A stretch of 64,000 nt of DNA, from the sequence record PQ529420; one strand, given 5' to 3'. This document shows, piece by piece, positions 13,376 to 22,552 of this stretch. The stretch is from Escherichia phage Eryne. The position numbers were made by a program, and so were the translations under genes. How positions within the stretch are numbered: the first letter of the stretch is position 1; every line of letters starts with the position of its first letter. A model generated the notes under the pieces. It was given only the letters and a program-made list of their open reading frames with translations, made no database searches and had not been told where the DNA came from.

Positions 13376-13432
13376 TTGACAACGTTTTTTAATCTGATAA
13401 GATGTATCACATAGGGCGGCAATAGTGCCGCT
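13376..13432 (+). promoter_or_regulatory. promoter plus 5' stem-loop cassette
   Basis: TTGACA, TAAGAT-like -10, conserved tatcacatag, hairpin ggcggcaatagtgccgc. Confidence 0.5.
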
Positions 13433-13455
13433 CATAACAGAAGAGAGAAATAATC

Positions 13456-13728
13456 ATGGCATCATATAGCGCATCAATGATCGTAACGGGCATCACTGGT
13501 AAACCTATGCGCGGTGGCGGATCTTTCGCTAACATAAATATTGATGGACGTTTATCCCTGGATGCAGCGATCACCGTGGCACGGGAAACATTTAAAAAAG
13601 AATGTAATTTCAATAAACAAGATTATCTCGGTTTCGCTATTGAAAAAACCGCGCGATTTGTGGATTATAAAAGCCCGAAAATGATCGACACTACACTAAA
13701 AGCGCAAGATGTAGCGTTTTTGCTTTAA
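13456..13728 (+). CDS. hypothetical protein
   Basis: ORF track; RBS AGAGAGA; own cassette upstream. Confidence 0.55.
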   Translation: MASYSASMIVTGITGKPMRGGGSFANINIDGRLSLDAAITVARETFKKECNFNKQDYLGFAIEKTARFVDYKSPKMIDTTLKAQDVAFLL

Positions 13729-13731
13729 GTC

Positions 13732-13791
13732 TTGACACTGAAAAATAATTTGGTAATATATACTCCATAAGGCGGGAAATGGTTTCCCGCC
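13732..13791 (+). promoter_or_regulatory. promoter plus 5' stem-loop cassette
   Basis: TTGACA (13732), TAATAT, hairpin ggcgggaaatggtttcccgcc (13771-13791). Confidence 0.55.
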
Positions 13792-13816
13792 AGGCCATCA
13801 AAGAAAGGGTAACACA

Positions 13817-14179
13817 ATGAGCAAGCAAATCAATACTATCATGTTAAACCTGGTATCTTTCCGCGACGACGTGAAAAATCTTCCACGTGATGCAGTGGAT
13901 GCACGGATCGAAAGCTATCGCTCACAGATCGCAACGCTACCGCTAAAACGTGATCAACATGCCGCTAATATGATGCTTAATGCTATGCTTAAAAAGATGA
14001 TTCAATGTGATCTTACCCTGGCTTATGAATATGCTGGCGATCTCTTTGTAACATATAGCAAGCCCGTACCAGGTATGAGCACAACGGAAGAATTGCATGC
14101 CTTAAATCTGCGACAAGATGCATGGGATAACATGCGCCGTGTTATGGTATGGGTAGAAAGCGGTAAAATTTACGAATAA
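13817..14179 (+). CDS. hypothetical protein
   Basis: ORF track; RBS AAGAAAGGG. Confidence 0.55.
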   Translation: MSKQINTIMLNLVSFRDDVKNLPRDAVDARIESYRSQIATLPLKRDQHAANMMLNAMLKKMIQCDLTLAYEYAGDLFVTYSKPVPGMSTTEELHALNLRQDAWDNMRRVMVWVESGKIYE

Positions 14180-14185
14180 AAACGG

Positions 14186-14240
14186 TTGACATTGCACTAA
14201 AACCTGATAAGCTATCTTAAAGCGGGAATAGTTCCCGCTT
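14186..14240 (+). promoter_or_regulatory. promoter plus 5' stem-loop cassette
   Basis: TTGACA (14186), TAAGCT-like -10, hairpin agcgggaatagttcccgct. Confidence 0.5.
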
Positions 14241-14257
14241 ACATAGGATAAAACTTT

Positions 14258-14404
14258 ATGAAACAATATGTAATGAGTATTCACACCAAAAACGGCGCTA
14301 CTGTTACGACTCCGGCACGGTTTGCACTTGTAAACCGTTGCAAGAGACTAAAACGAGAGCTAAAAAACAACCGTGCAACGGGCTTTAAACGCTGGGGAGG
14401 ATAA
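14258..14404 (+). CDS. small basic protein (48 aa)
   Basis: Hand-translated MKQYVMSIHTKNGATVTTPARF...; directly behind cassette. Confidence 0.4.
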   Translation: MKQYVMSIHTKNGATVTTPARFALVNRCKRLKRELKNNRATGFKRWGG

Positions 14405-14406
14405 TC

Positions 14407-14667
14407 TTGTTTTTTCTAAAAGTTTTTGATAATGTGATCGCTTTTGAACATGCTACGACGTTCAACCTGGCGAGATACGCTATCAGGTTTAAAGATAATG
14501 TTTATCCCCGTGCTGGCGGCGGTTACACTATTTTTAATCATCGCAACGCGCAACTGACTGATATAACTAATCCAGATCCGGGAGTGTATCGCATAGGCTG
14601 GCTACCGTCAAAAGACGCGGCAAGCATGTTTAAGGTATGTAAACTACTAACAGAAGAGGCAAATTAG
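14407..14667 (+). CDS. hypothetical protein (TTG start, translationally coupled)
   Basis: ORF track; GGGGAGG 7 nt upstream of TTG. Confidence 0.4.
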   Translation: MFFLKVFDNVIAFEHATTFNLARYAIRFKDNVYPRAGGGYTIFNHRNAQLTDITNPDPGVYRIGWLPSKDAASMFKVCKLLTEEAN

Positions 14668-14668
14668 C

Positions 14669-15223
14669 ATGGGGCGTGAGTATGTGATCCAGTCCTGGGT
14701 AAAGCATGACGCTAATGATCCGCGCATAATACCAGATGACATGATCGATCACATGGTAGGGTATAGCGGGGAGCAGATAGGAAATCGAGCGGCAAAGAGC
14801 AACGGCAACACAAAGGCGCGATCTGTTCGCCCTGGTTGGCTGGCAAATGGTAACGCTGACATTGCAAGCGCCGCAGATCCAAGCGATGACGCTAAAAATA
14901 ATCCCTTATACAGCATTGATCCGGCTTTTAAGGTGTTAGAAGAATATCCCGCTAAATTAGCCGCACTAGATAAAGCATACGAAGAAAAACGCATGGCATG
15001 GACGGTATACAACACCGCTAAAATGGTGCTAGATGCAAAATTGATTAAAGCCCAGGAGAAGATCAATAAACTTGTTGCAGTAGCGCAAGAGGAAGACCAG
15101 GACGACCAGGAGGAAGAGGAAGAAATCATGCCTACCCTGGAAGAGGAAGAGATCCAGCCATACATGCCGACGGAAGAGGAAAAAAGACAAGCCCTAAAAA
15201 ATTATGAAAATTGTCTTGTGTAA
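14669..15223 (+). CDS. hypothetical protein with acidic Glu/Asp-rich C-terminus
   Basis: ORF track; antisense ORF 14749-15165 judged spurious. Confidence 0.5.
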   Translation: MGREYVIQSWVKHDANDPRIIPDDMIDHMVGYSGEQIGNRAAKSNGNTKARSVRPGWLANGNADIASAADPSDDAKNNPLYSIDPAFKVLEEYPAKLAALDKAYEEKRMAWTVYNTAKMVLDAKLIKAQEKINKLVAVAQEEDQDDQEEEEEIMPTLEEEEIQPYMPTEEEKRQALKNYENCLV

Positions 15224-15226
15224 GGC

Positions 15227-20835: not shown

Positions 20836-20836
20836 T

Positions 20837-20898
20837 TTGACAATACGCGGTTATCTGGTAAAGTGTACGACATAGGGCGGGGCAATAAGGCAACGCCC
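20837..20898 (+). promoter_or_regulatory. promoter plus imperfect 5' stem-loop cassette
   Basis: TTGACA-16-TAAAGT then gggcggggcaataaggcaacgccc. Confidence 0.45.
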
Positions 20899-20916
20899 AT
20901 TAATGAGGGTAGAATC

Positions 20917-21021
20917 ATGTTAGAGAAAATTTTCACGGTTGTAATAGTTGGCCTGGCGTTATCGGTTGGATTGGTTGCAACTATGGCTAACATGATCCTA
21001 TCTTCCCACGGTATTGGATAA
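20917..21021 (+). CDS. small hydrophobic peptide (34 aa)
   Basis: Hand-translated MLEKIFTVVIVGLALSVGLVATMANMIL... Confidence 0.3.
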   Translation: MLEKIFTVVIVGLALSVGLVATMANMILSSHGIG

Positions 21022-21031
21022 GGTGAATCAA

Positions 21032-21247
21032 ATGATCACGAATAAGACAGGTAAAACAGAATTTTTACGCGGCTTGCAAATAGGTAAACCTGAGATCTGG
21101 CATTGCACTAAATCCGCGCATAATGAAATGAAAGATTTTACCGCTACTTTACAACGTGTTAAAATATCTATCACGCAGAAAAAAGCCTTGTTAGTAGTAG
21201 AAAACGAGATACCGCAAACCATTATTATTGTCGAGCGTACAGCATGA
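21032..21247 (+). CDS. hypothetical protein
   Basis: ORF track with start moved to first ATG (MITNKTGK). Confidence 0.45.
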   Translation: MITNKTGKTEFLRGLQIGKPEIWHCTKSAHNEMKDFTATLQRVKISITQKKALLVVENEIPQTIIIVERTA

Positions 21248-21630
21248 AAACTGAAATCATTATTGAAATCATCAACGGTTATAAAGAAGCCTTTATTTTT
21301 GCTGAATCAGCCAGGGATCATGAAGGCTATTTTATTGATAACTTAGACGATTATGATTTTTCAGATCAAGCCCATCAGCGGATCATTCATGACGTAGCGG
21401 CTTATTGTGATGCCAATGATGCTGCTATCTCTGAGGCAATGAGCGACGGCGCTACAGCAAACCAGATCGGGAATGATTTACATTTTACCCGTAACGGTCA
21501 CGGCGTAGGCTTTTGGGATCGCCCTGAAATATACACTACTAACACCGCCAACCGCCTAACAAATGCAGCTAAATTAATGCCATCGGTGCATGCTTACATT
21601 GGTGAAGATAATTTGATTTATATTGAATAA
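21244..21630 (+). CDS. hypothetical acidic protein
   Basis: ORF track. Confidence 0.5.
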   Translation: MKTEIIIEIINGYKEAFIFAESARDHEGYFIDNLDDYDFSDQAHQRIIHDVAAYCDANDAAISEAMSDGATANQIGNDLHFTRNGHGVGFWDRPEIYTTNTANRLTNAAKLMPSVHAYIGEDNLIYIE

Positions 21631-21636
21631 AAAGTA

Positions 21637-21695
21637 TTGACACCGATCCCCCATATGGTATTATTTACCACGTAGGCGGGAAATGGTTTCCCGCC
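21637..21695 (+). promoter_or_regulatory. promoter plus 5' stem-loop cassette
   Basis: TTGACA-16-TATTAT then hairpin ggcgggaaatggtttcccgcc. Confidence 0.6.
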
Positions 21696-21718
21696 AGGTA
21701 ATCAAAAAGGTAAATACT

Positions 21719-22108
21719 ATGCGCAACCTGGTTTCTGTTTCTAACGTTGAAAAATTCCAATCTTTACAGGGTATCGTTAACAACGTAGCGCCTTTTTTAG
21801 TCAATGGCTTGATTGCAAAGATGAAAAATAAACATCATGCGGCATGGTCTGCTTACTGCTTTGATAATGATGAAAAAGCGGCTAAAATGATGTTAAATAT
21901 GCTGTTAGACAGTGTAGAATCATCTTTACCGGAAAACATCGCAGAAGAGATCACCTATCGTTATAAGATGGCGATCACTTACCAGGAGGTTGCGCAATTT
22001 AATATGATGGATGATGACGAACAACAGGATCAGGAAATGTTCTGGGAGTATGCAGATCGTCAATCGGCTTTTGATGAAAAGTTAGCGATGTATTATAACG
22101 AATATTAA
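21719..22108 (+). CDS. hypothetical protein
   Basis: Start moved to MRNLVSV; the track start lies inside the hairpin. Confidence 0.55.
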   Translation: MRNLVSVSNVEKFQSLQGIVNNVAPFLVNGLIAKMKNKHHAAWSAYCFDNDEKAAKMMLNMLLDSVESSLPENIAEEITYRYKMAITYQEVAQFNMMDDDEQQDQEMFWEYADRQSAFDEKLAMYYNEY

Positions 22109-22121
22109 TACACGGTAAAAG

Positions 22122-22148
22122 AAAGGGGCGCACTAAGCGCCCTTTTTT
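22122..22148 (+). terminator. rho-independent terminator
   Basis: aggggcgcactaagcgccct followed by tttttt. Confidence 0.65.
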
Positions 22149-22492
22149 GTATTCTTTTTCACAATGGAAGCGACACGTAAAGAATAGGCGTAAAGGTGGC
22201 GTAAAACCATCTAAAACCGACTGTAACCGCTTAAACAAGGTAGGAATGATTAATCACCTTACCAGGATGAAAAAGCTGTTATAAAGCTATCTAGAGCGTT
22301 TAAAGCACATAGGAAATAATTTGCTTTTTATCTTGCCTTTTATCCTGCTTTTGATTATTATTATGGAACGGGCGGCACCTGGGGACAGGGGAAGATAATC
22401 ACCGGAAGATCCCGCTATATATTAATAGCTAATACCTATCAAACAACAAAACATCAAAGGAATAAACTATCAAATCTTTACAATCCTACCTA

Positions 22493-22552
22493 TTGACACA
22501 GGATCACCCTTATACTAATATGTATCCCGTAGGGCGGGAAATGGTTTCCCGC
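22493..22552 (+). promoter_or_regulatory. promoter plus 5' stem-loop cassette
   Basis: TTGACA-17-TAATAT then hairpin gcgggaaatggtttcccgc. Confidence 0.6.

Follow-up and report, generated by a model that had tools for sequence, protein, structure and literature searches.

Promoter-early stem-loops (PeSLs) have been described in the T4-like phages RB49/phi1, T4/PST and KVP40/nt-1 (Arbiol et al. 2010, PMC2839356; Comeau et al. 2014, PMC4122927). Their stem-loop lies between the -35 and -10 boxes, overlaps the -10 box or is found just upstream, and it was assigned a terminator role (PMC2839356; PMC4122927). In E. coli, mRNAs are stabilised by secondary structure at their 5′ ends, since both RppH and RNase E require a single-stranded 5′ end (reviewed in PMC3997798), and 5′-terminal stabilising stem-loops occur on the ompA and papA mRNAs (Emory, Bouvet and Belasco 1992, as cited in PMC3997798). 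Here we describe a repeated promoter-hairpin cassette in Escherichia phage Eryne (sequence record PQ529420), of which a window of 64,000 nt was analysed; all positions refer to this window. The interval 13300-22600 forms the early 'ORFan' region of the phage, a phi92-like myovirus, and contains about 20 modular expression cassettes. On balance, we lean towards reading these as PeSL-like mobile early-gene cassettes, in which the hairpin acts in the 5′ leader of the mRNA and the conserved unit also aids recombinational shuffling.

Over this interval, Eryne shares 99.6% identity with the phi92-like myovirus Escherichia phage Paula (Justusliebigvirus, Stephanstirmvirinae), and about 290 other phage records match in mosaic pieces at 85-98% identity. 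The genes are small hypothetical open reading frames (ORFs) with counterparts in phi92 gp226-gp248. A search of the whole 64 kb against Rfam at the gathering threshold gave 0 matches. Searches of a limited open-access library for phi92-like and rV5-like phages gave mentions of sigma-70 early promoters (rV5, CB7) and no earlier description of the hairpins. Nineteen records labelled 'Campylobacter phage' with C. jejuni as host (MG065645, MG065689 and others) share about 95% identity with this region of an E. coli phage, and their host labels look doubtful.

The interval is strongly enriched in hairpins. Counting perfect hairpins (stem of at least 6 bp with at least 4 GC pairs, loop of 3-7 nt), we found 16, against 1.41 +/- 1.16 expected and a maximum of 6 in 300 dinucleotide shuffles. 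Fourteen of them are cassette hairpins and two are ordinary terminators (17910-17934 and 22126-22142). The most frequent sequence is the 19-nt core GCGGGAAAtggTTTCCCGC, with six copies at 13771, 16473, 17353, 20031, 21675 and 22534, four of which share a full 21-mer; the variant GCGGGGAAAtggTTTCCCCGC lies at 19663. Three copies of GCGGCAatagTGCCGC (13416, 16792 and 20602) and two of GCGGGAAtagTTCCCGC (14220 and 16058) were found, together with single copies of GGCGGTGGaatagcCCACCGCC at 17091 and GGCGGGGGAgtaTTCCCCGCC at 20251. Weaker members are the hairpins at 15270-15282 (GGGGCaacGCCCC, a stem of just 5 bp), 19263-19274 (4 bp) and 20875-20898 (5 bp, large loop), as well as a decayed copy at 15608-15619. 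Matches to a covariance model of the hairpins were confined to 13.4-22.6 kb of the window. The first-pass annotation of this stretch had already listed hairpins here, and an independent mechanical scan recovered every one of them in place, with copy numbers (6, 3 and 2) that are right for the hairpin cores. One T had been dropped from the 20251 hairpin, however, the stem at 15270-15282 is shorter than a full member's, and the weak copies at 19263-19274 and 20875-20898 and the decayed one had been overlooked.

Most of these hairpins stand behind promoters. About 20 near-consensus sigma-70 promoters (TTGACA-N16/17-TAnnnT, 10-12 of 12 matches), several with a TG-extended -10 box, lie in 13.3-22.6 kb, all on the + strand. 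At 13 strong promoters, the first 32 nt or so of the expected transcript have a predicted fold of -13 kcal/mol or below, whereas the remaining promoter-like sites in the 64 kb have folds weaker than -7, the sole exception being one that runs into a true terminator. These 13 hairpins start 9-14 nt past the -10 box, at about +3 to +25 of the predicted transcript. Placed just after a promoter and before a small early gene, the hairpin is therefore transcribed at the start of the message. The parts of the cassette follow one order: the sigma-70 promoter, a conserved initial (c)RTAG, a GC-rich stem-loop and a leader bearing a Shine-Dalgarno (SD) sequence. The stem-loop has a G-rich 5′ arm and a C-rich 3′ arm of 6-10 bp around a loop of 3-6 nt, with a stability of -14 to -19 kcal/mol. 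Judging from the spacing of 7-8 nt to the -10 box and the cRTAG motif, the transcript would begin with AUAG or GUAG, immediately followed by the stem; a purine start at this distance gives a predicted 5′ overhang of 2-5 nt. No experimental 5′ ends for these promoters were found in the open-access literature.

The leader after the stem is 17-25 nt long and consists of 50% A and 18% T, against 26% T across the region, and its SD is of the AAGAGA/AAAGG/GAGG type. In leader folds the hairpin stands at the 5′ end, with the SD and AUG predicted unpaired (z = -2.5 to -5.8). The ribosome-binding site (RBS) regions of the leaders between 13434 and 22571 are unusual polypurine tracts (AAGAGA, AGAAGAGA, AAAGG) and not GGAGG. 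A boxA-like reading of CGCTCACAACA, which follows some hairpins, was dropped, as it would apply to a minority of cassettes only. Hairpin promoters of the N4 type were likewise dropped, the hairpins always being downstream of a sigma-70 promoter; no sign of a virion RNA polymerase was noticed, though no search was aimed at one.

The same arrangement recurs in related phages. A harvest of promoter-then-hairpin units covered Phapecoctavirus ukendt and SKA64, Justusliebigvirus PHB05, WPEC6, Citrobacter phage Tr1, the rV5-like Vequintavirus NHEP1, Certrevirus PcCB7V, and IMG/VR and metagenome contigs. It gave about 60 distinct hairpins at the same promoter offset across Phapecoctavirus, Justusliebigvirus, Tr1, Vequintavirus and Certrevirus. 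All have a G-rich 5′ arm and a C-rich 3′ arm, and the outer GCGG/CCGC is usually constant while the interior varies (GAAAtggTTTC, CAatagTG, CGGAatggTCCA and GGAAtacTTCC); some types are quite different (GGGGCGacaagCGCCCC, GGGGCaacaaGCCCC). By BLAST, one 88-nt cassette matched only within this clade of 135-155 kb myoviruses and had no match in T4-like phages. An IMG/VR scan with a promoter-plus-TAGGGCGG pattern returned mostly single chance matches, and only about six contigs were relatives.

Within this set, a swap test shows the inner arms of the hairpins co-varying. For 23 distinct interiors anchored on GCGG...CCGC, folding with the hairpin's own 3′ half gave -9.8 kcal/mol against -7.1 with a swapped one, and none of 2000 permutations was as good. 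In a model-based alignment of 68 distinct sequences, 34 cells had changed on both sides against 12.4 after shuffling (0 of 500). Individual cases of real compensation include G-C to C-G between GCGGGAA...TTCCCGC and GCGGCA...TGCCGC, the joint addition of a G and a C in the 19663 hairpin, and the shortening of both arms in the ukendt copy of 20251. Among orthologous genes, most often the whole tip is exchanged for another of a limited set of types while the flanks stay constant, and much of the apparent compensation is of this kind and not a stepwise double mutation. The gene at 20073, for instance, has GGGCGG|GAAAtggTTTC|CCGCTC in Eryne; the tip is |CGGAatggTCCA| in three relatives and |CAatagTG| in one more. 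What looks like compensatory change is therefore partly an exchange of cassettes or tips among self-complementary types.

Several features speak for a function of the hairpin in the RNA. Its orientation relative to the gene is constant, also in divergent arms. The inner segment between the GCGG and CCGC cores ranges from 5 to 16 nt across the 23 variants and some types have no such cores; with stem length and core spacing this variable, a conserved fold fits better than a rigid dimeric DNA operator. The sense RNA is more stable than the antisense in 59 of 90 variants, against 26 with the opposite bias (Wilcoxon p = 0.002 if variants are independent). The first-pass annotation had preferred an RNA structure in the 5′ untranslated region to a DNA operator, and the transcribed position fixed from the -10 box, the variable core spacing and the sense bias agree with it; stable folds in single-stranded DNA and frequent DNA-level events, among them loop inversions and junctions inside hairpins, temper that preference, and the closest known system, the PeSL cassettes, had been left unconnected.

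In the 5′ leader, the hairpin is probably a stabiliser or insulator. A 5′-proximal stem-loop would hinder 5′-end-dependent decay by RppH and RNase E and would keep the RBS free of upstream context, and any small gene placed behind the cassette would gain strong, uniform early expression. The promoterless hairpin at 20251-20271, which begins 8 nt past the stop codon of the 20073-20243 ORF, would serve as an intercistronic stabiliser. That this copy lacks a promoter and stands between two genes had been claimed before and was borne out, as no promoter-like site was present on the + strand between 20018 and 20379. The conserved cassette would in addition aid recombinational shuffling through its homology and a single-stranded DNA hairpin, much as has been proposed for the PeSLs of T4-like phages; the DNA hairpin would favour template switching.

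A number of observations weigh against this leader role and against a conserved RNA fold. With transcription predicted to begin at the A or G of cRTAG, some 2-5 nt would stay unpaired, and RppH may still be able to act. In the same region, the promoters at 15305, 18150, 18615 and 19006 have no hairpin; in two relatives a cassette without a hairpin drives the gene at 15645, and the majority of Certrevirus early promoters are likewise devoid of one. With such cassettes both here and in relatives, the element is dispensable. Variants with an internal C.A mismatch or bulge are common, and such uncompensated changes are evidently tolerated. A wobble test meant to tell RNA from DNA, which compared G.U with C.A in the stems, gave about 8 against 3 lineages and was not significant. 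The variants are phylogenetically related, and this inflates the permutation p-values. Lastly, the covariation score of the 68 distinct sequences, 0.168, was matched by a control with the register shifted by one column (0.181). Formal covariation is weak because the arms are G-runs facing C-runs. MAFFT aligned the hairpins outwards from their loops, so that no single structure line fitted the alignment, and a covariance model built on it re-aligned 150 matches with only 82.6% paired. With a slid control as good as the real register, covariation was treated as weak and the anchor-based swap test was used instead. The earlier proposal that the hairpins keep one fold through different sequences, with stems staying complementary, thus stands in part: the fold recurs across about 60 variants and own arms pair better than swapped ones, but the covariation is weak, tips are swapped whole and mismatches occur. 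A covariation count, the kind of check that had been proposed, gave the excess of both-side changes and, at the same time, a score no better than that of the shifted control.

Part of the evidence can be read at the level of DNA. It is at the cassette, a unit of about 80 nt, that relatives diverge, with genes inserted, deleted or reordered and hairpin tips replaced, and gene order differs among them at cassette boundaries. Of the 106 ends of BLAST segments (high-scoring segment pairs) against relatives, half (53) lie within cassettes, which make up 20% of the region; this is a 2.5-fold enrichment, although these ends are not independent. Junctions lie inside hairpins in three relatives (L003, L176 and L204), and one hairpin is fused directly to another. 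In two others (L063 and L004) the loop is reverse-complemented while the stem is unchanged, compared with 17091-17114 (AATAGC to GCTATT) and 16790-16809 (ATAG to CTAT). Loop inversions of this kind are what template switching within a hairpin, or recombination between its arms, leaves behind. The two-gene module 20020-20617, with its intercistronic hairpin, is 95.7% identical in NHEP1 (L118, 9038-9635), a rV5-like Vequintavirus of another subfamily. This identity across subfamilies and the cassettes at both sides of the module suggest a recent horizontal exchange.

These events have led us to consider that the palindrome is a DNA-level element, folding in single-stranded DNA during replication or recombination as a hotspot, or as selfish homology that spreads promoter-gene cassettes, with any effect on RNA incidental. 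Besides the junctions, the inverted loops, the tip swaps at the same gene and the clustering of segment ends, the stability of the single-stranded DNA hairpins (-8 to -10.5 kcal/mol) and the PeSL crossovers mapped within the loop speak for it. It leaves unexplained, however, why the hairpin holds a fixed position after the start, why the G-rich arm comes first, why the sense strand is the more stable and why the leader is unpaired and poor in U. Homology rather than a fold suffices for recombination, moreover, and roles in RNA and DNA are not mutually exclusive. A purely DNA-level function is therefore a possibility that we take seriously but think unlikely, and we retain a leader function with shuffling as a second role.

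The hairpin might instead stop or damp read-through from upstream cassettes as an attenuator or terminator, and so avoid a pile-up of expression along the array. This role was first proposed for PeSL stem-loops, and the RB49 PeSL stem-loop alone cut lacZ expression like a strong terminator (PMC2839356). The hairpins described here are also GC-rich and intergenic, the 20251 copy stands between two genes without a promoter, and several were annotated as terminators by the depositors of Paula. They lie downstream of their own promoter, however, which an efficient terminator would cancel, while the PeSL stem-loop of T4-like phages is upstream of or inside the promoter. No T-tract follows them on the + strand, with 0-3 T within the 8 nt downstream of each, so that they are not + strand terminators. 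A terminator scan of this strand flagged none of the cassette hairpins but did flag canonical terminators at 22120 and 23280. A- and T-tracts flank the true terminators of this phage (17910, 22120, 23280, 37347, 39486, 47398 and others); within the region, this contrasting class is represented by a canonical bidirectional intrinsic terminator at 17910-17934 (AAAAGGGCGCaataaGCGCCCTTTT) and a canonical intrinsic terminator at 22120-22148 (GGGGCGCactaaGCGCCC plus a T-tract). In the Paula record (LR865361.1), PAULA_TERMINATOR_012, 013 and 016-020 are cassette hairpins, called mostly on the strand opposite the genes, where the complement of the AT-rich -10 region mimics a T-tract, and these labels are probably a prediction artefact. 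Termination as the function of the hairpin is accordingly an unlikely explanation.

Outside the early region, canonical A-tract/T-tract terminators adjoin sigma-70-like promoters, in one case between a promoter and its gene. They are found at 39486-39506, 47398-47417, 41723-41742 and 37347-37366 (- strand), and also at 49376-49395 and 61906-61925. Their layout is nearer to that of the classic PeSL, and two of these terminators share an identical AAAGGGGCTTTCGCCCCTTT.

A protein-binding site could take two forms: a DNA operator at +4..+25 for a phage repressor of the early promoters, in a lacO-like geometry, or an RNA hairpin for an antiterminator or nuclease, boxB-like or RegB-like. In its favour, conservation extends to the outer GGCGG/CCGCC and the upstream RTAG, and the hairpin overlaps the position expected for a roadblock repressor. 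Set against this are a core distance that varies from 5 to 16 nt, types such as GGGGCGacaagCGCCCC that lack the cores altogether, and loops that are variable and can be inverted; no Rfam family matched and no candidate binding protein was identified. We regard such a site as improbable. That the hairpins are structure-specific recombination sites, loosely like integron attC in keeping one fold with variable sequence at the bounds of single-gene cassettes, through which a dedicated phage or host enzyme exchanges promoter-gene cassettes even across subfamilies, would fit the 95.7% identity of the 20020-20617 module in the rV5-like Vequintavirus, but is highly improbable.

The individual cassettes are all on the + strand. 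Four of them carry GGCGGGAAAtggTTTCCCGCC: 13732-13816 (-35 at 13732, -10 TAATAT 13754-13759, hairpin 13771-13791, ATG 13817), 16434-16515 (TG-extended -10 TATAGT, hairpin 16473-16493, ATG 16516), 17315-17393 (hairpin 17353-17373, ATG 17394) and 21637-21718 (hairpin 21675-21695, ATG 21719). GGGCGGCAatagTGCCGCTC is found in three. The first, 13376-13455, has its -35 TTGACA at 13376-13381, a TG-extended -10 TAAGAT at 13398-13403, a hairpin at 13414-13433 with the perfect core 13416-13431, and a leader with an SD before ATG 13456; the others are 16752-16830 (hairpin 16790-16809, core 16792-16807, ATG 16831) and 20562-20640 (hairpin 20600-20619, core 20602-20617, ATG 20641). The cassette at 14186-14257 (-35 at 14186, -10 TAAGCT 14208-14213) has AAGCGGGAatagtTCCCGCTT at 14220-14240 before ATG 14258, and that at 16017-16098 combines a consensus TTGACA-16-TATAAT with a hairpin at 16054-16077 (core 16058-16074, GCGGGAAtagTTCCCGC; ATG 16099). 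A weaker promoter, TTGCAA-16-TAAACT with its -10 at 17075-17080, heads 17053-17136 (hairpin 17091-17114, AGGCGGTGGaatagcCCACCGCCT; ATG 17137). The hairpin 19663-19683 of 19622-19703 (GCGGGGAAAtggTTTCCCCGC; ATG 19704) is the one with G and C jointly added relative to the common type. Outer G.U pairs occur at 19990-20072 (hairpin 20029-20051, GGGCGGGAAAtggTTTCCCGCTC; ATG 20073) and 22493-22571 (hairpin 22532-22554, core 22534-22552, GCGGGAAAtggTTTCCCGC; ATG 22572).

The remaining units are as follows. At 15227-15290, a promoter (-10 15250-15255) is followed by the short hairpin 15270-15282 (GGGGCaacGCCCC) and then by a hairpin-less consensus promoter, 15305-15332, serving ATG 15370. The decayed hairpin at 15608-15619 (GGGAatacTCCT) in the cassette 15569-15644 is intact (GGGAAtacTTCCC) at the same gene in relatives. 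The cassette 19227-19297 (ATG 19298) has only the 4-bp hairpin 19263-19274 (CGGCaaagGCCG). The promoterless hairpin 20251-20271 (GGCGGGGGAgtaTTCCCCGCC, with a G.U pair as RNA) stands downstream of the stop at 20243 and ahead of ATG 20291; relatives keep it, among them a rV5-like phage. A hairpin-less remnant cassette at 22807-22880 (TTGCTT-17-TATAGT; ATG 22881) retains the conserved leader cGTAGGGC without a 3′ arm. The cassette 20837-20916 has a hairpin at 20875-20898, GGGCG-ggGCaataagGCaa-CGCCC, with a 5-bp stem and a large interior. It precedes ATG 20917 of a 34-aa hydrophobic ORF (20917-21021, MLEKIFTVVIVGLALSVGLVATMANMILSSHGIG) that is unannotated in Paula although it has the full promoter-hairpin-SD cassette, and that is likely a real small membrane protein.

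Beyond the array, 23306-25013 is a stretch of about 1.7 kb without an annotated gene in Paula. It holds four copies of a AAATGATAATCATT... motif (23511, 23569, 24465 and 24660), three 16-nt tandem units at 23880-23930 and several inverted repeats, and could be an origin or regulatory region. The copy at 24463-24481 has two mismatches to the 19-bp Fur-box consensus of E. coli, with 0.07 chance matches expected.

If the proposed function is true, phi92-like and rV5-like phages express and trade host-takeover ORFans via a standard plug-in unit of promoter, 5′ hairpin and open RBS. The PeSL idea would then extend beyond T4-like phages, with a different internal layout. The cassette would also give annotation a simple marker of genuine small early genes, the unannotated ORF at 20917 among them, would correct mis-annotated 'terminators' in deposited genomes, and would provide compact natural promoter/5′-UTR (untranslated region) parts for E. 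coli expression. No long-standing question is opened by the finding.

Compared with known systems, the cassettes share much with PeSLs. In either case an intergenic unit of about 100 bp combines a near-consensus sigma-70 early promoter and a G(n)-loop-C(n) stem-loop with an SD and start codon at its 3′ end. Units of both kinds accumulate in a hyperplastic region of small ORFans and are found at insertion, deletion and replacement boundaries between close relatives, with crossovers in or beside the stem-loop. The lineage here is Stephanstirmvirinae/Vequintavirinae rather than T4-like, however, and the order is promoter, stem-loop, SD, which puts the hairpin inside the transcript, with no U-tract. 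The cassette is thus like a PeSL in genome plasticity but not in the position of its stem-loop or in a terminator character. With an intrinsic terminator the hairpin shares a short, GC-rich, intergenic stem, but no coding-strand T-tract follows it, and in contrast to a DNA operator for a dimeric protein, neither the sequence nor the spacing of its half-sites is fixed. A stem-loop also stands at the start of phage T7 gene 10 transcripts. Like the ompA and papA structures, the cassette hairpin is stable, GC-rich and predicted to lie very near the mRNA 5′ end, followed by an open RBS, and in them the fold prevails over the sequence, as it may here. It differs from them in that it recurs as a mobile module in front of more than a dozen genes and has a predicted overhang, 2-5 nt, at the edge of the protective range. 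With the start sites taken from prediction, it is the 5′ stabilisers of the ompA type that the cassette hairpin appears to resemble most.

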